Source of the DNA: a virus | Lineage: Duplodnaviria; Caudoviricetes | Strand: one strand, 5' to 3' | Length of the DNA stretch: 39,998 bases | IMG/VR virus record: IMGVR_UViG_3300037420_000418 | Span: 1 to 39,998 of that record | Shown here: positions 2,559-39,790 of the stretch, in pieces | Layout of the letters: each line of letters starts with the position of its first letter | Position numbering within the stretch: the stretch's first letter is position 1 | Program-made: the position numbers and the translations under genes | The notes under the pieces: generated by a model | Database searches by the model: none | What the model was told of the DNA's origin: nothing | What the model saw: the letters and a program-made list of their open reading frames with translations, nothing else

Positions 2559-5500
2559 GCATTGTCCACACCCACCGACACGGTGAGTATTCTCTGTTGG
2601 ATGGAGTAGGTACGGCAGAGCAATATGTAGCGGAAGCAGTCCGCTTGGAGCAGCCGGGGATCGCCGTCACCGACCACGGCACTTTGGCCGGTGCCTTGCA
2701 CCATTACAAGGCGTGTAAGGAAGCGGGAATCTTTCCCATCCTGGGCATGGAGGCGTACTTCAAGCCCAACCGCCACCTGAAGGACGCTGAGAATAAGGTC
2801 TTCTACCACCTTGTTCTCTTAGCTAAGGACCTTAAGGGCTGGCATAACCTTATGAGGATTTCCTCAGAGGCTTACAAGACTGGTTTTTATTACAAGCCGT
2901 GTATTGATTTTGACTTGTTGTCGCAGTACAACGAAGGCATCATTTGCACTACGGCTTGTATATCTAGCTATCTGAACAAATCAATCCTTGGCGGTGATCA
3001 CACAGCCGTCAATGATACCGTCACATTCTTGAAGGACACCTTCAGGGAAGATTTGTTCGTGGAAATCATGCCCCATGATTTTGACGACCAGAAGGTACTA
3101 AACGTGGAGTTGGCCAACCTCGCCAGCGAACACAGTCTTCCGTTGATCGCCACGGTGGATGCCCATTATCCCTACAAGGAATGGGCTGACACGCAGGACA
3201 TTATGTTGATGATGGCCACTGGCCAGACGGTTGAGAAGAGAAAGAAGAAGAAGGAAGCTGGTGAGGATGTATACGAGTTTGGCTGTGACTCGCTCTATCT
3301 CATGAGCCGCGAGGATGTTGAGAATGCTTTCGAGAGAAATCATCCTCATATTCCCAAAGAGATAGTAAAAGACTCAATCAATAACACCCTCGAAGTCATG
3401 AACCGGGTCGTTCCCTTCATGATTTCTAAGCGCCAAAAGATGCCAAAGGTTGAGGGCAACTCGAAGGATATTGTCCGTCAGTGGTGCGAAGAGGGATTGC
3501 AGGAAAAACTTGAAGACGGACAGGACATTGACGGCCGCTATCGGGAGCGGTTGGAGTTCGAGCTAGAGACGATTGAGCGCAATGGCGCACTCGATTACTT
3601 CGTGGTCGTCGGTGACGTATGCCGCTGGGCCAGGGGCCAGGGCATCCGCATTGGTGCCGGTCGCGGCTCTGCTGCTGGGTGTCTCGTCTCTTACCTAATC
3701 GGCATCACCTACCTCGACCCCATCGCCCATGGACTGCTCTTCGAGCGCTTCATGAACCCTGACCGTAAGGGAATGCCCGATATCGACCTGGACTTCCAGA
3801 GCGACCGCCGCGATGAAGTTAAGAAGTATGTATCAGAAAAGTATGGAGAGGACCATGTAGCAGACATTTGTTCTCACCAGACGTTTAAAACCAAGGGCTC
3901 TCTTCAGAAGGTTGCCAGAGTCTTTGATATGTATAAGGAATCCCATGAAGTAACAGAGACTATTGGCGATGATGAAGATGTGAAGCTAGAGCGTCTGGCT
4001 GAGGTAAACGCCAACTTCACTGAGTTCGCCGCTAATAACCCGACGATTTGGAAGCACGCCTGCCGAGTTCAGGGTCAGGTTCATACTATCTCCAAGCACG
4101 CCGCCGGGGTAGTAGTCACCGACCGACCAATTTCTGAGTACATGCCGATCATGTTCGGCAAGAAAGGCGAGGTAGTAACGCAATGGGGTGCCAGTTCTGA
4201 TTTCAACATCATTGATGAGTACGGATTCCCAAAGATTGACTTCCTGGGGATCAAGGGACTGGCTATGCAGGAGTATGCCTGTGATCTGATCGAAGAGAAC
4301 CATGGCATACGTATCAATTTGAATGATCTGCCGGTGATGAATAACCCCTATGCCACCGACCAGAAGGTGTTGGATGCCTTCAGTAAGGGTTTAGTCCTAG
4401 GGGTCTTCCAGTTCACCGGTTCGCGCGGGTTCGCCAAGTTGATTCAGTCTTTCAAACCTAACTGGCTGGGCGACCTGGGCGCTGCGAACGCGATCTATCG
4501 CCCCGGCCCGCTCGGCGGCGACGTGGATAAGTTCTATGCAAACAGAAAGTTTGGTAGAGAACAAGTTTCTTACTACCATGAGTCCGCCGAAGATGTATTG
4601 AAGGAAACTTATGGTCTAATTGTCTACCAGGAACAGATCATGAAGCTCGCACAGGCTATGGCGAACTTCACTGGCGGTGATGCTGACACGCTACGGAAGG
4701 CGATCAGCAAAGAATACCGAAACGGTATGGCCCACGTCATCAAGTATCTTGAAGACAAAGGATATAAGGAGAAGTGGTACCAGGGATGCCGCGACAATGG
4801 CATAAATGATTCCGTCATACAGGAGGTATGGCGTCTGATCATCGCCTTCGGAGATTACGGATTTAACAAGTCTCATGCTTACGCGTATGCCTCTCAGTCG
4901 TATCAGGATATGTGGCTTAAAGTATTCTACCCCACAGAATTCTATGCCTCCCTTCTTACATATCACGCTGATCTTGCACGGCGTACGGTGCGAGAAGCGA
5001 GAATGTTTGATGTAGAAGTCAAGCCGCCGGATATCAACCGCTCGGGGCGCGAGTTCACGGTCAGCGATGGAGAGATTCTGTTCGGTCTGAAGGCGGTCAA
5101 AAACATGGGCGACGTAGCGGTTAGGGAGGTACTGGAAAAGCAACCCTTCCGCTCTTATGAGGATTTTTGCGAGCGCATCACCCCGAGGGCGTGCAATAAA
5201 ACCTCCAAGGCGGCCCTGGTAGCCGCCGGTGCCTTCGACCGTTGGGGTATGCGAGAAGAATGGACTCCTGATCAGATCAACAAGTCTGAGAGAGAAATCC
5301 TGGGCGTCACTATCTCACAGTCACAGATCATTAACAAGTACAAGGATCTAGTGGCAAGGCTCATTACCTCTGAGGAACAATTTGATGGGCTGCCTGCTGG
5401 CTCGCCAGTGATTGTGGGTGGAGATATGATCTATAGCAAGGAAATTAAGACTCGTGGTGGTAAGAAGATGGGCTTTGTGGAGCTACAGTTTGGTTCCCAA

Positions 5501-5683
5501 ACATGGCAAACCACTCTCTTTATCGAAGAGTGGGCCGAGTTCTATCCAATTATCATCACTGGCGATCCCTTGATGATCAGAGGAAGAAAAGATTTTGCCC
5601 CTAATGGTAAGCCCACCATTATCGTAGACTCACTTGCTACAGTAGAAGAAGTAGCAATGGAACTAGCGAATAGGAGCGGATAG
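2555..5683 (+). CDS. dnaE: DNA polymerase III alpha subunit (family C)
   Basis: PHP HxH..YSLLDG, TDHG, GRGSAAG, PDIDLDF, KHAAGVV, FNKSHA, C-terminal OB fold. Confidence 0.97.
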   Translation: MSIVHTHRHGEYSLLDGVGTAEQYVAEAVRLEQPGIAVTDHGTLAGALHHYKACKEAGIFPILGMEAYFKPNRHLKDAENKVFYHLVLLAKDLKGWHNLMRISSEAYKTGFYYKPCIDFDLLSQYNEGIICTTACISSYLNKSILGGDHTAVNDTVTFLKDTFREDLFVEIMPHDFDDQKVLNVELANLASEHSLPLIATVDAHYPYKEWADTQDIMLMMATGQTVEKRKKKKEAGEDVYEFGCDSLYLMSREDVENAFERNHPHIPKEIVKDSINNTLEVMNRVVPFMISKRQKMPKVEGNSKDIVRQWCEEGLQEKLEDGQDIDGRYRERLEFELETIERNGALDYFVVVGDVCRWARGQGIRIGAGRGSAAGCLVSYLIGITYLDPIAHGLLFERFMNPDRKGMPDIDLDFQSDRRDEVKKYVSEKYGEDHVADICSHQTFKTKGSLQKVARVFDMYKESHEVTETIGDDEDVKLERLAEVNANFTEFAANNPTIWKHACRVQGQVHTISKHAAGVVVTDRPISEYMPIMFGKKGEVVTQWGASSDFNIIDEYGFPKIDFLGIKGLAMQEYACDLIEENHGIRINLNDLPVMNNPYATDQKVLDAFSKGLVLGVFQFTGSRGFAKLIQSFKPNWLGDLGAANAIYRPGPLGGDVDKFYANRKFGREQVSYYHESAEDVLKETYGLIVYQEQIMKLAQAMANFTGGDADTLRKAISKEYRNGMAHVIKYLEDKGYKEKWYQGCRDNGINDSVIQEVWRLIIAFGDYGFNKSHAYAYASQSYQDMWLKVFYPTEFYASLLTYHADLARRTVREARMFDVEVKPPDINRSGREFTVSDGEILFGLKAVKNMGDVAVREVLEKQPFRSYEDFCERITPRACNKTSKAALVAAGAFDRWGMREEWTPDQINKSEREILGVTISQSQIINKYKDLVARLITSEEQFDGLPAGSPVIVGGDMIYSKEIKTRGGKKMGFVELQFGSQTWQTTLFIEEWAEFYPIIITGDPLMIRGRKDFAPNGKPTIIVDSLATVEEVAMELANRSG

Positions 5684-24115: not shown

Positions 24116-24533
24116 GAAACTCTTTGATGATGTAATTACACCAACATATGAAACAATAGGATCAGTAGGTTTTGATCTTAGGTCCTATGAAGATTACGAG
24201 ATAGAACCTTTGGAATTGGGGCTGGTCCGGACGGGGTTGGTAATAGAAACCCCGCCCGGATTCATGCTCGCCCTCGTGCCCCGTTCAAGTACCTTCAAGC
24301 GCACCGGGTTGGTCATGCCACACAGTGTGGGTGTGATTGATCAGGATTATTCCGGCGAGGAAGATGAGTTGATTTTGCAGTTCTACAACAGTAGCCGCCA
24401 CGCAACTGTTGATGTACGTAAAGGTGACAGGATTGCTCAGGGTATTTTCTTACGGATCGGTCGCTTTGGTTTTGAAGAGACAGAATCTATGGGCGATAGC
24501 CGGGGCGGCTTCGGAAGCACAGGTACACAATGA
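24099..24533 (+). CDS. dut: trimeric dUTPase
   Basis: GFDL, PRSS, GVIDQDYSG, GDRIAQG, RGGFGSTG. Confidence 0.95.
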   Translation: MKIKFKKLFDDVITPTYETIGSVGFDLRSYEDYEIEPLELGLVRTGLVIETPPGFMLALVPRSSTFKRTGLVMPHSVGVIDQDYSGEEDELILQFYNSSRHATVDVRKGDRIAQGIFLRIGRFGFEETESMGDSRGGFGSTGTQ

Positions 24534-24730
24534 TTTTGAAAGCGGAAGACCTGGACTTCGAAAGCTATACCCCCTCTGGTGTAGGGGCACCACAAAATGT
24601 TAACAGTGCAATTAAAATCACACACATTCCGACAAACTCATATGTAGTTTGTCAGCGGTTCCCTAGTCTTTTAAAAAATAGGGACGCCGCCCTAATGGCA
24701 TTGAAGGTACTGGTGTCTCATGACGGTTGA
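24530..24730 (+). CDS. stand-alone RF-1 (peptidyl-tRNA hydrolase) domain homolog with degenerate GGQ
   Basis: EDL..SGVGAPQNVNSAIKITHIPT..VVCQ..S..KNRDAAL matches release-factor domain 3 consensus. Confidence 0.75.
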   Translation: MILKAEDLDFESYTPSGVGAPQNVNSAIKITHIPTNSYVVCQRFPSLLKNRDAALMALKVLVSHDG

Positions 24731-28483: not shown

Positions 28484-28966
28484 TTACTCATAAGAAATCA
28501 CATAGAATCTCTCATCAAAGTACGGTTCGATTACGGGCTTAACTTGCTCCCATGAAAGTTGGCCGTTCCCGCACCCGGGCCGAGGAACGACAACAGTGTG
28601 ATCACTCTCATAAGTGCTGTCAACACTATCAAGAAAGTGAACAAGCTCTTTGGCGCTGCGTTCGATCAGCTTCAGATCGGCTGGCCTCATCCAATGATGC
28701 TTGACCGGGAACGACAGTAGATCGAAGGCTAAGTGGCGGGTCTTACCACCGGGTGCAGCCTCAGTCCATCCTAGTTCATGTACGTGGTTGCCGTAGGTCG
28801 TTAGAAGTTCGCCAAGGGTTAGGTCAATACCTGGGTACCGGACGACAGCCTCCCTGGCGCACCCTCTACCCATGACCGCACGCCCGTTCTTCTTCACGAA
28901 ACCGTTGGTAGTAATACACCTAAGGTCAGCTTTAAAATCCCATAGGTCGCCTTTAACTTCATTCAT
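28484..28966 (-). CDS. macrodomain (Appr-1-p/DarG-Poa1-like) protein
   Basis: KGDLW..TTN..VMGRGCA..FPVKHHW..PRPGCGNGQLSW. Confidence 0.85.
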   Translation of the reverse strand: MNEVKGDLWDFKADLRCITTNGFVKKNGRAVMGRGCAREAVVRYPGIDLTLGELLTTYGNHVHELGWTEAAPGGKTRHLAFDLLSFPVKHHWMRPADLKLIERSAKELVHFLDSVDSTYESDHTVVVPRPGCGNGQLSWEQVKPVIEPYFDERFYVISYE

Positions 28967-30805: not shown

Positions 30806-30807
30806 AG

Positions 30808-30891
30808 TGCCGCCGGAGGGAATCGAACCCCCACTCCGTAAAGGAACATGATCCTAAATCATGCGTGTCTACCTAGTTCCACCACGGCGGC
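30808..30891 (-). tRNA. tRNA-Leu(TAG)
   Basis: CATGA-TTTAGGA-TCATG anticodon arm; type II cloverleaf. Confidence 0.95.
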
Positions 30892-30894
30892 GAG

Positions 30895-31047
30895 ATTTGC
30901 GGGGCGGTATTTGATAGTTGTGCACTATAAATACATTCCATGAATCACTTCCCGCTAAGGAAGATCGCCGCTAAGCGATCAGCGATTCACTTTCTATCCG
31001 CAGGGTTTCCTGCACTTTTTGTTATCCCTGTTTGTCGTCCCGCAAAT
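30895..31047 (-). ncRNA. structured ncRNA unit 1 (153 nt)
   Basis: terminal inverted repeat ATTTGCGGG/CCCGCAAAT; internal multibranch with two UAGC-loop hairpins; strand inferred from flanking tRNAs and internal G-U pairs. Confidence 0.6.
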
Positions 31048-31049
31048 TA

Positions 31050-31203
31050 TTTCTGGCGGCTGGATCTGAGAATCCGACCTCACTTCTCCTACCACTTCAG
31101 ACAGAGGCTACCTCGCTAGAGGTTTAGGGAGCTACCCTTTCGCTTGCCCTTTCGATAAACCGGCCTAAGGGTCGGTCCCGTACCGGCTGTATACCGCCAG
31201 AAA
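31050..31203 (-). ncRNA. structured ncRNA unit 2 (154 nt)
   Basis: perfect 10-bp terminal stem TTTCTGGCGG/CCGCCAGAAA; internal UAGC-loop hairpins. Confidence 0.6.
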
Positions 31204-31211
31204 GATTAAGT

Positions 31212-31343
31212 TGTGGCGCGAGGTAGGCTATACCTATTATTTTACCGTAGTAAATTTTCTACCGACTTTCCTCGCTCTACAAAATGCTAGGGCCGGAGCC
31301 TATCCCGGCGCGACATATGTAGGGGGAAGCGTGTCGTGCCACA
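31212..31343 (-). ncRNA. structured ncRNA unit 3 (132 nt)
   Basis: terminal stem TGTGGCACGA/TCGCGCCACA; C(UACG)G tetraloop hairpin on - strand. Confidence 0.6.
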
Positions 31344-31360
31344 TCTAGTTAACATAAAAG

Positions 31361-31545
31361 TTGTGGCGCGTGTGATACTTGGCTAGCACGTTCTCACAAT
31401 TTAGGTTTCATTTGGCCCAGGCCATCGGGGACGATCCACCCCTCCGCACCCTGCTAGGCGTAGCAGGCCGGGTTGCACCTTTACCGCTCTCCGTAGCGAC
31501 CCCCATTTTATAGGGTGCCGACCCCCACGGTGCGTCGTGCCACAA
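31361..31545 (-). ncRNA. structured ncRNA unit 4 (185 nt)
   Basis: same terminal stem sequence as unit 3, different interior with GC-rich hairpins. Confidence 0.6.
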
Positions 31546-31547
31546 AT

Positions 31548-31562
31548 TATTCAGTTTTCAAG
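31548..31562 (-). promoter_or_regulatory. boxA-like antitermination/processing motif
   Basis: CTTGAAAACTGAATA on - strand, after a small hairpin. Confidence 0.4.
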
Positions 31563-31618
31563 TTACGGACCCCAAAATTTTCGGGGGGAGAAAATTGTTC
31601 TAGCACTATGATCATAGA

Positions 31619-31729
31619 TAGAGAACCAAACCCGCTCTTTTATTGTGCTACTGTTGTCCGTTCGCCAATTTAGGCATCCGATCACTCGTTAGAGTTTTCA
31701 GATTTTATGTTCGCCGATTTGGTTCTCTA
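31619..31729 (-). ncRNA. structured ncRNA unit 5 (111 nt)
   Basis: perfect 12-bp terminal stem TAGAGAACCAAA/TTTGGTTCTCTA. Confidence 0.55.
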
Positions 31730-31730
31730 G

Positions 31731-31852
31731 CGCCGCTCTGGGAATCGAACCCAGATCATATGAAAGAGCTTAGCTCGTTTACACTAGCCGCGCGTATCTA
31801 GGAGGGACGAGCAGCCTATGACACTCTTTCTGATAGCTCAACCTGAGACGGC
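31731..31852 (-). ncRNA. tRNA-like RNA with long rod replacing the anticodon arm (122 nt)
   Basis: T arm CTGGG-TTCGATT-CCCAG; bulged acceptor GCCGTCT/AGCGGC; nested helices ATCA/TGAT, GAAAGAG/CTCTTTC, GCTCGT/ACGAGC, CTAG/CTAG. Confidence 0.7.
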
Positions 31853-31866
31853 ATGAATTTTTAAAT

Positions 31867-31980
31867 AAAAAGTAGAGGGGAGACACCAGTTTACCCCTCT
31901 GTTTTAGGTGCAACCCACGTTTATACTCGGCAGGTGGAGTTAGAGGATCAACGATAGCGCTAACGCATTTTCTACTCTCT
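31867..31980 (-). ncRNA. possible structured ncRNA unit 7 or terminator-containing spacer
   Basis: ends pair (AGAGAGTAGA/TCTACTTTTT with G-U); alternative AGAGGGG/CCCCTCT hairpin followed by T run. Confidence 0.4.
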
Positions 31981-31982
31981 AG

Positions 31983-32056
31983 TGCGGGCAGTAGGATTCG
32001 AACCTACGACCTCCTGCTCCCAAAGCAGGCGCGCTGCCAGACTGCGCTATACCCAC
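31983..32056 (-). tRNA. tRNA-Pro(TGG)
   Basis: CCTGC-TTTGGGA-GCAGG anticodon arm; GGTTCGAATCC. Confidence 0.92.
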
Positions 32057-33586: not shown

Positions 33587-33588
33587 AA

Positions 33589-33746
33589 TGCACGAGGCGG
33601 GGATCGAACCCGCAAGGCCAACGATGGATTCTTCAAATTCCTCCCCGCGAAGGGATGAAATTTTCTAGGCCGGTACCAAACGGTCTGCGAATCCAGGGCC
33701 ACTAGGGTTTGAGCCTAGCGTGTTTACCGGATTTCACCACTCGTGC
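33589..33746 (-). tRNA. tRNA-Leu(CAA) with 88-nt variable region (158 nt total)
   Basis: acceptor GCACGAG/CTCGTGC+A, Leu-type D arm, CTAGG-CTCAAAC-CCTAG, T arm GCGGG-TTCGATC-CCCGC; variable region 33614-33701. Confidence 0.85.
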
Positions 33747-33988: not shown

Positions 33989-34180
33989 GGTAATTTTCTC
34001 TTACGTTATATACCGAAGTCTGAGGTTGAACTTACTTATCGCCCTACATTCCCCACATGAGGAATGCACATAGCTTTTCTACGAATTCCCTGAACTCGTA
34101 CCAAGCTTGCTTCAAAGTATGTTCGCCTCCATTAGATTATGTTATGAAACAAGACAGGGTAGATAAGGATTACTCCCTAC

Positions 34181-34426
34181 CTACCCTGTCTTGTGATAGC
34201 CCGTCCCATCGTTTGAGACTTCTTCTCGAAGCCCACGATCCACAATGGGAAGCCCAGCTTGCGCGACAAGTATACCAAGGTCTGTATACTTTTGATCTTT
34301 CGGCCAAAAGGCAAACCCATACTCACCGCTATTAAGTTGAAAGAGAAGAATTGCATTAACAATCTCTTCTCCGACAACTCCTGCTAGGGCTTTCTCGATG
34401 AGGGTCGATAGCTCTTCATCCGCCAT
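34181..34426 (-). CDS. hypothetical protein
   Basis: AAGGGG SD. Confidence 0.6.
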   Translation of the reverse strand: MADEELSTLIEKALAGVVGEEIVNAILLFQLNSGEYGFAFWPKDQKYTDLGILVAQAGLPIVDRGLREEVSNDGTGYHKTG

Positions 34427-34774: not shown

Positions 34775-34960
34775 CTAGCTCTTCCGCTTACGCCAGTGTT
34801 CCTTCACTTCTCTGGCGCTTGCTTGGAAGTAGTTTACACGCTTGTCAAGTGGCTTGATCAAAAGTGCTTGCGGAGCTTTGCCCTCGACAAATGCGAGGAA
34901 GATCCGGCCTTTGTGGTCCACTCGAACAATGTCCCCTTCCTTGATAGGTGCGAGGTTCAT
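34775..34960 (-). CDS. small KOW/SH3-like protein
   Basis: IKEGDIVRVDHKG. Confidence 0.6.
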   Translation of the reverse strand: MNLAPIKEGDIVRVDHKGRIFLAFVEGKAPQALLIKPLDKRVNYFQASAREVKEHWRKRKS

Positions 34961-35001
34961 CCGTGTGATTGATTGGAAGGATACACAACAGGAAGGGTTT
35001 G

Positions 35002-35268
35002 TCAAGCGGGAATAGTTTCTCGCTTCTGAAGCTGCTTGATAGCGCGACCGAGAGAGATATTCCTGCCCGTTGACTTGCAGTAGTTGTCCTCGTCGCTGCA
35101 CCGGGCAACGGAGGTAACGACCTCGTTGCCTTCTTCGTCAAGGATGCGACAGCGCGTCATGCCACCACGAGGATCCATATACACCTGACCGCCAATCTTT
35201 TCAAATTGGCGAACGTGTGTGTACTTGGCGATATAACCTTCTGGAAGCTGAGGCTTCATAAAGATCAT
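35002..35268 (-). CDS. conserved phage hypothetical protein
   Basis: GGMT..ARCSDEDNYCKSTGRNISLGRA; AGGAGG SD. Confidence 0.7.
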   Translation of the reverse strand: MIFMKPQLPEGYIAKYTHVRQFEKIGGQVYMDPRGGMTRCRILDEEGNEVVTSVARCSDEDNYCKSTGRNISLGRAIKQLQKRETIPA

Positions 35269-35573
35269 GCCTCCTTTAAATGTAGTAGCTCTGAAAGACC
35301 TACCATGATCTTTACACTAATTTCTCTAGCCGAGAAGTCCTTAAGATCGACGTAGTAAATAGGCTTATAATCTTCAGGTTCTTGGAAGGCTTGCTCCGCC
35401 GAAGAGATTAGATCATCTTCATCGCTGAAGGTATCAATCCAGTATTTGCTCTCATTCTCATTTACTAAGACGAGAGCAAACCTTCCAATAGAACCTGAGA
35501 CTACTTCTATGTTTTCCGACGAGATATTGAACTTGTCGGCCAGGATATGAAAGTATTTACTATACCCTGACAT
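35265..35573 (-). CDS. hypothetical protein
   Basis: ORF in operon. Confidence 0.6.
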   Translation of the reverse strand: MSGYSKYFHILADKFNISSENIEVVSGSIGRFALVLVNENESKYWIDTFSDEDDLISSAEQAFQEPEDYKPIYYVDLKDFSAREISVKIMVGLSELLHLKEA

Positions 35574-35582
35574 ATGTTCAAT

Positions 35583-35903
35583 TTAGAAGCGGCGAAGCTC
35601 CTGGTGTGCCCGACCCGAGTCGAATTCATCCACAAACTGACGGAACTCGGTCGGATTGTAAACCACGTCACCCCGAACGGTACCACCAACAGCGGCAGCG
35701 AACTTGACGCGCTGGGCTTCAGGCACACCAAGGATGGAGCTGGATCTAACCGCTGCACCCGGGAGCAGATCCTTCAGCGAGTTGGCTAGCGGACAATCTG
35801 CGCCGATTGAGCGTCCCTGGGCGATCTGCGATAGCGGAGCGCCACCTAGGGCTACGCGGGCGGCGTTGACCTTGTCCAGAACCCGCCTTTTATCTACGGC
35901 CAT
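35583..35903 (-). CDS. hypothetical protein
   Basis: AAGGAG SD; CPLANS..FVDEFDSG. Confidence 0.7.
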   Translation of the reverse strand: MAVDKRRVLDKVNAARVALGGAPLSQIAQGRSIGADCPLANSLKDLLPGAAVRSSSILGVPEAQRVKFAAAVGGTVRGDVVYNPTEFRQFVDEFDSGRAHQELRRF

Positions 35904-35971
35904 CTGTTCTCCTTATGTCGTTTAGTAATTCGCGCGGCTTCACACGACAGGCGTGAGCGCTCGCGCCGTTC

Positions 35972-37648: not shown

Positions 37649-38362
37649 TTACTCCAGTCCAGCCTCACTTAGCTCACACTGGATGATGTTGTTAGCTTCG
37701 ACGTTCATATAGATCATGCCCGGAACCTTGTCCCCGGCAAGCTGCTTGCGAACCCCGGTCAGCAGATGACTACCAACGTGCCCCATTACATCAATAACGG
37801 AGCGCCGGGTACAAGGATCTTCCTGAGCGTCCTCATCGGAGTACAGCGTCTTCTCAAACAGACGCCATTCCTCCGGGTCCTTCGGGTTGACCGAGTAAAT
37901 GACGATCTTCTCGCCACCAATCCGGGCATCCCAATAGCGAGGAATGTGGAAGCGGTTAGCCTTCACGGCCTTGGCAATTTCCGTCCGCGCCGCCATTGAA
38001 TCGACGCCGGAGACGACTAGCCCCATAAGCTGCGTCGAGTCGGTAACACGCTCATTCTTCTCTTCAACTTCAGAGATAGTGAAAGAACTAACCGCCTCGC
38101 TCAAAGCATGAACCTTCGGGTAACCCAGCTTATCCAGAGGAAAGAACTGGTTGGGAAGGTTATGAGCCTCGACAGAGTCATCGTCAAAGACGGTGATCCG
38201 GCCGATGCCAAGCTTGCCAGCCATGACAGTGAACAGAGAACCGATTCCACCACCACCGATCACTGTCAGCTTGGCATCAATCGAAGTAGGATCGAACCAA
38301 TCCCGCTGGCGGGTGAAGTCGATGGTCCCATTGCGTTCTAGTTCTAGAACACGAGGATTCAT
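37649..38362 (-). CDS. ThiF/MoeB/E1-family adenylyltransferase
   Basis: VIGGGGIGS, DDDSVEAHNLPNQ, KV, GVDSMAAR, DARIG, Cys in EDPC. Confidence 0.92.
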   Translation of the reverse strand: MNPRVLELERNGTIDFTRQRDWFDPTSIDAKLTVIGGGGIGSLFTVMAGKLGIGRITVFDDDSVEAHNLPNQFFPLDKLGYPKVHALSEAVSSFTISEVEEKNERVTDSTQLMGLVVSGVDSMAARTEIAKAVKANRFHIPRYWDARIGGEKIVIYSVNPKDPEEWRLFEKTLYSDEDAQEDPCTRRSVIDVMGHVGSHLLTGVRKQLAGDKVPGMIYMNVEANNIIQCELSEAGLE

Positions 38363-38388
38363 GGAATCACTTCCTTTATTTGTTGTTG

Positions 38389-38577
38389 TTAAGTAAGCTC
38401 TTTAAGCCTTGCCGGGTCAAGATAAAACTCATCCTCATATTGGTCGGGACGAGGATTCAGAAGCTTATAGTTATAGCCATCGTCACATACGACGGCTTGA
38501 CCTTTTACGCCGTAATAAACACCGTCTTCGGGTTCCTCGGCACCGTCTTCAATAAGCACGTAGAATTTTCTACTCAT
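38389..38577 (-). CDS. small hypothetical protein
   Basis: ORF between JAB and ThiF genes. Confidence 0.55.
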   Translation of the reverse strand: MSRKFYVLIEDGAEEPEDGVYYGVKGQAVVCDDGYNYKLLNPRPDQYEDEFYLDPARLKELT

Positions 38578-38610
38578 AACATATTATTTAGTTTGATTAT
38601 AAATACTCTT

Positions 38611-38636
38611 CTCTCCACCGCCGAAACGATGGAGAG
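38611..38636 (-). other. stable RNA hairpin just 3' of JAB gene
   Basis: CTCTCCATCG-TTTCGG-CGGTGGAGAG; no U tract. Confidence 0.6.
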
Positions 38637-38644
38637 TAGACTAC

Positions 38645-39790
38645 TTACATCGCACCCATCATCATGGGGAATGCTTCGAGCACTGCCTTGCGCTCTTCTT
38701 CACTGAGCGTGCGGCGCTTCTTAATGGCTTCCTTTTCCTCATTCAGAAGCTTATCCCAAACAGACTTGGTGATATCTTCCAGAAGGATCAGTTCAGAATC
38801 TTCGACAATCAGTGAGATATCGAAGAACGAAGCGTAGCCAGCGCTTTCGTCAAAGCAACGAAACCAAGTTGCTTCAAAGAAATCACCGGAATCCTCGGCC
38901 TCGTTGTCGGTGTCTTTTCCCCCGTTACTCCCTCGCCGCTTAGTGCCGGTTGAGGAGTTCTTGGACCCTTTGCTCCCGTTCTTCGAGCTTGGCCCGGAAG
39001 TAGTCGTCTTCTTCCCCCCAGACCAGACCCATTTTGGGGACTGCACCTTCTCTTCGTACTCAACCTTAGCCTCTTCCTTGATACCATTCTGGATAGCAAG
39101 GGTAGCTTCGGTGAGTTCCTTATTTACATCCTTGACGGCATCCTTACGAGCTTTCTTGAGTTCTTCAAGACGCTCCTTCAGATCCTTAGTGACATTATCA
39201 AGCTCTTCTTCAAGCTTGGTAATCTCTGCGTCGTAGGGAGCCTCAATACTCTCGCTCTTGGCGATAATATTGATCAGCCCCGGGTGAGGGAGGATTTCGA
39301 GAGACGCGCTCTCGAAAGTAACAGAGTGTCCCTCTTCATCCAGAAGCGGACAAATGTTCCTATCCAGACCCTTGAAGACGTCAAGCCGGTGCTTAACCTC
39401 ATTGCGGTTGTTATACACCGACGAGAACATCCACGGAACCGAGTAGCCCATGCGCTCGATGAAGTCCTTATCCGTACCGGACCAGAACGTACTCATCGCG
39501 CCATGTGAGTGCCAAGAGTAGACGCCGTACTCAGCCGCCGTCCAACCAGCACCGCCATTCTCGACAGGGGTGTACAGCCATTCAAGATACTTAGCGAATG
39601 CCTGATCATCCCAATCGACCGAGCCGGAGGAAACTTCCTGCTCCAGCAGCCGCATATGGCGAACCACATTGGCTCCGTCTTCGAGAGTCTCGATGACGCC
39701 AAAGCCGCCAATCTCATTTGGGGAAGCCTCATGCACCCAGGCTTTAATCCGAGTGTAATCCTCTTCCTCAATAAAGAGAATAGGTGTCAA
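38645..39790 (-). CDS. JAB/MPN-domain metalloprotease-like protein with coiled-coil extension
   Basis: NEIGGFG (Glu), WHSH..FWSGTD (HxH..S..D); TTG start with AGGAG SD. Confidence 0.85.
   Translation of the reverse strand: MTPILFIEEEDYTRIKAWVHEASPNEIGGFGVIETLEDGANVVRHMRLLEQEVSSGSVDWDDQAFAKYLEWLYTPVENGGAGWTAAEYGVYSWHSHGAMSTFWSGTDKDFIERMGYSVPWMFSSVYNNRNEVKHRLDVFKGLDRNICPLLDEEGHSVTFESASLEILPHPGLINIIAKSESIEAPYDAEITKLEEELDNVTKDLKERLEELKKARKDAVKDVNKELTEATLAIQNGIKEEAKVEYEEKVQSPKWVWSGGKKTTTSGPSSKNGSKGSKNSSTGTKRRGSNGGKDTDNEAEDSGDFFEATWFRCFDESAGYASFFDISLIVEDSELILLEDITKSVWDKLLNEEKEAIKKRRTLSEEERKAVLEAFPMMMGAM

Follow-up and report, generated by a model that had tools for sequence, protein, structure and literature searches.

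The 40-kb stretch of uncultured phage DNA analysed here (the window) contains a non-coding gap at 30892-31981, flanked by genes for tRNA-Leu(UAG) and tRNA-Pro(UGG), both on the minus strand. Eight short ORFs of 40-59 aa overlap the gap, three of them on the minus strand (40-45 aa, with TTG or GTG starts), and none of the eight matched PHROGs at E<=0.1. There is no credible gene in the gap. The initial annotation had likewise seen no ORF here in the track it was given. The array that fills the gap was found whole in one sequencing run, possibly the source itself, and in pieces from two other runs with 0 differences. The agreement among independent contigs indicates that the array sequence is not an assembly artefact, and no sequence variants within the array were found among the contigs covering it.

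The phage DNA occurs in soil and rhizosphere sequencing runs, and the longest contig carrying the proteins of the window is 99.9 kb. The window encodes a DnaE polymerase, a RecA-like protein, a terminase and a portal protein. The best cultured-phage match of the polymerase was 33% identical, and the terminase matched only one of 50,697 phage records, with 23% identity. An endolysin-like protein has one named homologue, from an Actinomycetota genome bin, which is no more than a hint on the host. An atlas look-up of one early protein returned no match at 0.9 or above. The left-facing arm of the window carries tRNAs for Leu(UAA), Leu(CAA), Leu(UAG), Pro(UGG) and Arg(UCU), with no encoded CCA. Three minus-strand ORFs (30805, 33586 and 30039) begin 2-5 nt past the 3' ends of three leucine tRNAs, so that tRNA 3' cleavage would yield nearly leaderless mRNAs. 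The window also holds adjoining ThiF (E1-like) and JAB genes (37649-39790, minus strand), a gene for a small RF-1-domain protein (24530-24730, plus strand) and one for a macrodomain-like protein (28484-28966, minus strand). The coordinates of the array and its neighbours are listed in Table 1.

Table 1. Features in and around the array. The z-scores are for minus-strand folding; closing-pair probabilities are from a fold of the whole array with a pair span of <=200.
Feature	Position	Strand	z-score	Closing-pair probability	Remarks
tRNA-Leu(UAG)	30807..30891	-			CCA not encoded; lies downstream of the cassette; may partner unit 4 in cis
Unit 1	30895..31047	-	-5.2	1.0	closing helix GCGGGACG/CGCCCCGC; repeat D3; ends 3 nt before tRNA-Leu(UAG)
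Unit 2	31050..31203	-	-2.4	1.0	11-bp closing stem related to units 1, 3 and 4; multi-hairpin interior
Unit 3	31210..31345	-	-2.2 to -2.5	0.98	closing helix same as unit 4; long irregular hairpin inside; repeats D4 and D6
Unit 4	31361..31545	-	-0.6	0.93	A-C mismatch in closing helix GUGGCACG/CGCGCCAC; hairpin domain (5') and mirror-tRNA domain
Putative mirror of tRNA-Leu(UAG), unit 4 3' half	31366..31449	-			plus strand aligns end to end with tRNA profile
Gap between units 4 and 5 (73 nt)	31546..31618	-			G/C hairpin 31570-31586, then boxA-like word 31562-31548
Unit 5	31619..31729	-	-5.5 to -7.5	1.0	14-bp closing stem; A-rich interior; GGCGAAC twice; repeats D5 and D9; starts CUAGAGA directly after unit 6
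Unit 5 stretch complementary to anticodon arm of bacterial tRNA-Leu(UAG)	31662..31683	-			shorter than the unit 4 mirror
Unit 6	31731..31853	-	-1.7	0.53	tRNA-like; canonical T-arm with GUUCGA loop, imperfect acceptor stem
Unit 7	31866..31981	-	-0.5 to -0.7	0.0	starts CUAGAGA directly after tRNA-Pro discriminator; weak G-U-rich end-pairing; repeat D9
tRNA-Pro(UGG)	31982..32056	-			no encoded CCA; upstream neighbour of cassette
Second tRNA-Leu(CAA)	33588-33746	-			variable arm ~85 nt with extra hairpins; Rfam 47.9 bits; missed by ARAGORN
Eighth end-paired RNA (~120 nt)	34013..34133	-	-5.15 (0/200 shuffles)		Y-shaped; outside array

The gap had been described as a row of about seven units, each closed by pairing of its two ends, and this observation was partly confirmed. 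The best tiling of the gap by stem-closed units of 100-200 nt gave a sum of 133.8 kcal/mol, compared with 107.8 +/- 6.7 for shuffled sequences, none of which (0/300) scored as high. The count of seven units alone was not significant, as 116 of 300 shuffles reached it, and the tiling missed the ends of units 3 and 4. When other window-strands were tiled in the same way, one of 68 reached 134.1. An ORF-containing stretch on the minus strand (34881-35970) equals the array in stem tiling and has several long-range helices inside its ORFs. In the fold of the whole array, units 1-5 closed strongly and unit 6 weakly, and unit 7 did not close in its context. The folds of units 4 and 6 are little or no more stable than those of shuffled sequences, and a sliding 120-nt folding scan did not single out the array. 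For unit 5, at a z-score of -7.5, none of 200 shuffles was as stable. The linkers, most of them said to be 1-17 nt long, are indeed short and A/U-rich in the main, but a 73-nt gap with its own hairpin separates units 4 and 5.

In unit 7, a local hairpin followed by a U-run competes with the end-pairing, and 49 of 200 shuffles were as stable; it may be a trailer or spacer, and its status as a unit is doubtful. Units 5 and 7 both open with CUAGAGA, after unit 6 and tRNA-Pro, respectively, suggesting a repeated tRNA-plus-trailer pair. Unit 6 itself shares a 13-nt identity with the T-arm of tRNA-Leu(UAG), and its 3' part reached E 0.64 with a Leu covariance model. It has no D-arm and no 7-nt anticodon loop, and neither ARAGORN nor Rfam called it a tRNA. 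P1/P7 C4 is a tRNA-shaped antisense RNA. Unit 6 resembles C4 in retaining a T-arm and an acceptor-like stem and in having another element, here a long branched stem, where the anticodon arm would be; unlike C4, it shows no enriched complementarity to 64 phage gene leaders and has no Rfam match. Antisense pairing of the units to these 64 leaders in the window was rejected, as no word from any unit stood out in a comparison made without a shuffle control. The eighth end-paired RNA lies just past a terminator-like hairpin (34150-34195) and shares the 10-nt 5' word GGCGAACAUA with unit 5; it matched neither Rfam nor any phage record. An intergenic site in Lactobacillus phage PLE3 agrees in 27 of 29 nt (E 0.09) with the hairpin and boxA-like word in the 73-nt gap (31548-31590, minus strand). 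A boxA role in antitermination was not confirmed for this word, and none of its three genome matches lies beside rRNA genes.

The 8-bp closing helix common to units 1-4 has an A/U-rich leader before it and AA after it. In the alignment of the four helices, 26 of 29 cells were paired and three pairs were changed on both sides; 15 of 500 shuffles scored as high, and slid registers reached 52% or less. The A-C mismatch, two C-G/G-C pairs and an AC are retained in units 1, 3 and 4, and the helix of unit 1 has two compensatory changes relative to units 3 and 4. At the mismatch position, unit 2 has G-C when aligned by eye. The interiors, which had been called unrelated, do not align. The units nonetheless have their ends in common, and to that extent they are related. 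The design is modular, with different cargo enclosed by a single type of closing helix.

The region could instead be one large folded RNA of the GOLLD/ROOL kind. An 11-nt perfect complement joins units 7 and 4 and forms when the pair span is unconstrained, in which case unit 4 pairs with tRNA-Leu and unit 7 instead of closing. We estimate that one 11-nt match has a chance of about 0.1 in 1.1 kb, however, and the repeated, self-contained closing helices argue for modules. Rfam searches over the array gave no GOLLD, ROOL or OLE match, and none to a self-cleaving ribozyme, tmRNA, SRP, 6S or RNase P. A single large RNA is therefore a most improbable reading. The earlier statement that no unit can be assigned to a known family was borne out: Rfam gave no match at E<=1 over the window, and nothing rose above noise when the array was searched at E<=10. 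In 270 pairwise tests, no convincing likeness to an rRNA, tmRNA, 6S, SRP or RNase P sequence emerged, and hammerhead, twister, theta-ribozyme and RNase P motifs, looked for by eye, had no Rfam support.

With slight doubt, we take the units to be made from the minus strand, which is that of the tRNAs. Read on the minus strand, the positions that lack a partner on either strand comprise 102 A and 43 U, and the loops of units 1-5 are A-rich on that strand. Both strands of each unit were folded, as the initial annotation had proposed, and the outcome was mixed: units 5 and 6, together with the hairpin of the 73-nt gap, fold better on the minus strand, whereas units 3 and 4 have better z-scores on the plus strand (-3.2 to -3.5 and -2.0, compared with -2.2 to -2.5 and -0.6). 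If units 1, 3 and 4 were made from the plus strand, their A-C mismatch would become a G-U pair, the tRNA resemblance of unit 4 would be in sense, and unit 4 would be a tRNA-Leu look-alike decoy. This is hard to reconcile with the long ORFs and tRNAs of the arm, which are on the minus strand, or with the A-rich minus-strand loops, and no tRNA fold was recognised on the plus strand of unit 4. We regard plus-strand synthesis of these units as very unlikely.

No homologue of the array was found; the compensatory changes described above are those among its own paralogues. A blastn search of the array against 50,697 phage records gave nine short matches, none in T4-like phages, and a search against phages and plasmids returned only tRNA or short chance matches. 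Pattern searches of viral DNA yielded 0, 3, 47, 3 and 8 loci, none of which proved to be an array homologue on inspection. The metagenome pattern search yielded 116 loci, none matching the array or the window proteins by blast, and the 10 read by eye looked like chance. Protein-anchored searches returned 59 loci, none of which had an array or shared more than one further gene, as well as seven distant loci; the others returned none. Several tRNA-like sequences were seen along the way. Two IMG/VR loci (L099 and L103) have a ~55-nt anticodon-less tRNA-like element at the pattern match, the acceptor of which uses both closing-helix strands of units 3 and 4 in swapped order. In Mycobacterium phage Fowlmouth (MH834613.1; L004, about 2458-2524), genes 56 and 57 flank an unannotated tRNA-like sequence whose T-arm and 3' end resemble those of unit 6. 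ARAGORN missed a further tRNA-like sequence (L064, about 5500-5571), which reaches a score of about 50 on several isotype profiles.

Such RNAs have a precedent in T4 RNAC and RNAD, which sit in a tRNA region as well. According to the available extracts of PMC3014915, PMC9697503 and PMC12685909, these RNAs (species 1 and 2) are non-tRNA RNAs of ~120-140 nt encoded in tandem in the tRNA region, and their function is unexplained. The units described here are likewise non-coding, about 110-190 nt long, in a tRNA region and on the tRNA strand. The array differs from RNAC and RNAD in having six or seven units in a row, four of them with a common closing helix, and in lacking sequence homology to rnaC or rnaD by blastn. 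It also has a putative tRNA-complementary domain, a feature that the same extracts do not mention for RNAC or RNAD (PMC3014915, PMC9697503, PMC12685909). The locus is thus a real, orphan, modular RNA array, of a kind that is known yet unexplained. A literature search, mainly of recent and freely available papers, found neither phage RNA arrays like this one nor anti-tRNA phage RNAs.

The sole lead on function is the apparent complementarity of units 4 and 5 to tRNA-Leu(UAG). It first surfaced in the fold of unconstrained span, in which the 3' half of unit 4 paired along the whole tRNA-Leu(UAG), loops included. Because the plus strand of this part aligns with a tRNA profile, the unit 4 RNA would be complementary to tRNA-Leu(UAG), forming a mirror with 58 of 84 identities and with the D-, anticodon- and T-loop in order. 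The profile comprised 31 bacterial Leu(UAG) genes picked by likeness to the phage tRNA, mostly from one small phylum rather than from the host. On this profile the mirror scored 32.5, whereas the runner-up in the window that is not a tRNA reached 25.8, and reverse complements of real Leu(UAG) tRNAs scored up to 28.3. It came top of 608 unit/strand/isotype tests and of 76 profile-strand scans of the window, was matched by none of 20,000 shuffles, and was the best non-tRNA place in the window, with tRNAs masked, in all 20 parameter sets. Across 3.44 Mb of masked background, the one higher score belonged to a real but truncated tRNA-Leu. Cofolding pointed the same way: the mean gain with unit 4 was -8.5 kcal/mol for the 31 Leu(UAG) tRNAs and -1.4 for 107 others, and a gain of -11.0 compared with -2.0 +/- 1.6 for shuffled unit 4 (0/60 shuffles). 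The anticodon-complementary stretch of unit 4 is predicted to be partly unpaired. In unit 5, the second stretch would form a duplex of -24.1 kcal/mol with the commonest anticodon arm and of -15.3 with that of the phage tRNA. A single non-tRNA place in the window outscores this unit 5 mirror, for which the expectation was 0.014 per array length.

Other results limit the resemblance. Only our own end-to-end profile detected the mirror, which escaped Rfam, nhmmer at E<=50 and, at E<=10, a Leu(UAG) covariance model. The duplex energy of unit 4 with the phage tRNA was unremarkable (20 of 200 shuffles), and its cofold gain with that tRNA was -7.7, about average, which argues against host-specific silencing by unit 4. 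When three further Leu(UAG) genes were compared with unit 4 by sequence, one ranked first of 71 tRNAs and two were unmatched (z 0.8 and -0.2); by cofolding, two of the three ranked second and third of 71. The mirror was suggested by the data themselves, which calls for a correction of the shuffle figures; after allowing for about 40 isotypes, we estimate the chance level of the unit 4 mirror at 0.01-0.03. The resemblance of unit 4 to tRNA-Leu(UAG) is, on this basis, likely to be real. The word CCUAAA occurs four times in the array (32 of 5,000 shuffles), which is weak evidence, as four copies of one 6-mer or another are present in 735 of 1,000. A wobble skew against the phage tRNA of 7-10 to 0 (4 of 2,000 shuffles) was discarded as largely compositional, because bacterial tRNAs give 154:65 against the same phage tRNA. 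That unit 4 encodes a tRNA-Leu(UAG) on its plus strand was also rejected, as the covariance model gave no match at E<=10 and the anticodon stem and T-loop are broken.

If real, the resemblance could point to an antisense role, or an inverted tRNA gene could have left it behind as a relic. With a relic in mind, the units might be no more than processing spacers, the helices of which insulate folding and set cut sites around cargo that is inert in trans, including an old inverted tRNA-Leu gene. The unalignable interiors fit this view, as do the trailer-like unit 7, the failure of standard tRNA models to find the mirror, and the breaks in the mirror itself, the anticodon stem of which keeps 2 of 5 pairs, with a broken T-loop and nine gapped columns relative to the profile. 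Yet 1.1 kb would be costly for only two flanking tRNAs, and the folds of unit 1, unit 5 and the eighth RNA are far more stable than those of shuffled sequences (z -5 to -7.5). The D-, variable- and T-hairpins of the mirror are still fully paired in sequence, and a second mirror of the same anticodon arm lies in unit 5. We consider inert spacers unlikely.

The initial annotation had offered decoys or sponges for host defence or RNA-binding proteins as the function. One such possibility is that the matured RNAs bind host proteins (defence nucleases, Ro60 or translation factors) through the shared helix, the tRNA complementarity being due to chance, at the corrected level estimated above. The A-C mismatch retained in three paralogues, with the AC that follows it, resembles a protein-recognition mark, and unit 6 is tRNA-like. 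The closest comparison is with the YrlA and YrlB Y RNAs, which have ends paired in a long helix, in some cases carry tRNA-like modules, are processed several from one precursor and are present in mycobacteriophages, as given in the available part of PMC4201824. The YrlA motif reported there is GNCGAAN0-1G, located in the terminal helix on its 5' strand (PMC4201824). In its place, unit 5 and the eighth RNA have GGCGAAC-A. Near their 5' ends, unit 5 (31715) and the eighth RNA (34127) read GGCGAACA, and the sole full match to the motif (31666) is internal, in unit 5. The YrlA module, with T-arm, acceptor and D-arm permuted, is absent; the only canonical T-loop in the array is that of unit 6, in normal tRNA order. 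No Ro60/Rsr was found among the ORFs scanned in the 40-kb window, of a genome of about 100 kb. Rfam, which includes a YrlA family, gave no match, and with the motif also missing from the 5' ends a Y-RNA-like function was not upheld.

End-paired gaps are also predicted, unannotated, among the tRNAs of Streptomyces phage Blueeyedbeauty (L396; 21184-21386, 21463-21753 and 29956-30354). The second of these has a Y-RNA-like 5' motif and a T-arm, lies about 2 kb from a Ro-like gene, and gave no Rfam match at the gathering score. Such gaps thus also occur in a cultured actinophage, although they are not homologous to the array, and this pairing of a Ro-like gene with end-paired gaps in a tRNA cluster lends some support to a protein decoy. 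For an anti-CRISPR-like or antitoxin-mimic RNA, no CRISPR-repeat or antitoxin-repeat structure was found in the window, only short two-copy repeats. No support emerged for the particular functions originally proposed, and a protein decoy seems to us quite unlikely.

We favour a row of stem-closed units that are likely cut into separate RNAs, of which unit 4, and more weakly unit 5, is predicted to bind tRNA-Leu(UAG), and we give this reading a probability of about 0.5. Its first part, that the gap is a cassette of matured RNAs, is somewhat the safer and is probably correct. Individual maturation, as claimed earlier, is consistent with the tRNA-flush ends, the A/U linkers, the shared compensated helix and the A-rich loops; maturation itself we infer from these features. 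The arm would be transcribed as one RNA, the units together with the tRNAs. As in tRNA processing generally, host enzymes would make RNase Z-type cuts after tRNA-Pro and unit 6, and RNase P would presumably cut before unit 6 and tRNA-Leu. The A/U linkers would be removed by single-strand nucleases and exonucleases as far as the closing helices, which would yield stable RNAs of 110-185 nt with the shared closing helix as a reusable handle.

The second part is far more tentative. Unit 4 might seed on the anticodon loop through its unpaired CCUAAAU and zip along the tRNA, which is the weakest step of the scheme. The host tRNA-Leu(UAG) would then be taken out of use, and the phage would supply its own four leucine tRNAs. 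T-box riboswitches bind one tRNA isoacceptor via the anticodon and 3' end. Like a T-box, unit 4 would bind one isoacceptor, with the CUA codon in an unpaired stretch, and the 3' end as well; unlike a T-box, it would be complementary along the whole tRNA, is no amino-acid gene leader and matches no T-box family in Rfam. That a full-length mirror on a reusable helix disables or shields tRNA-Leu(UAG), with unit 5 directed at the same arm, and that the phage thereby rewires leucine decoding, is a speculative model. An anti-tRNA role in general is doubtful, and targeting of the tRNA is best seen as the leading, but minority, hypothesis of function.

If the mirror reading fails, the locus is one more orphan array. 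For small RNAs of the T4 RNAC/RNAD type in phage tRNA clusters, the reading offers a concrete and testable function for one cargo. If it is true, the virus would control host decoding by antisense RNA rather than by a nuclease.
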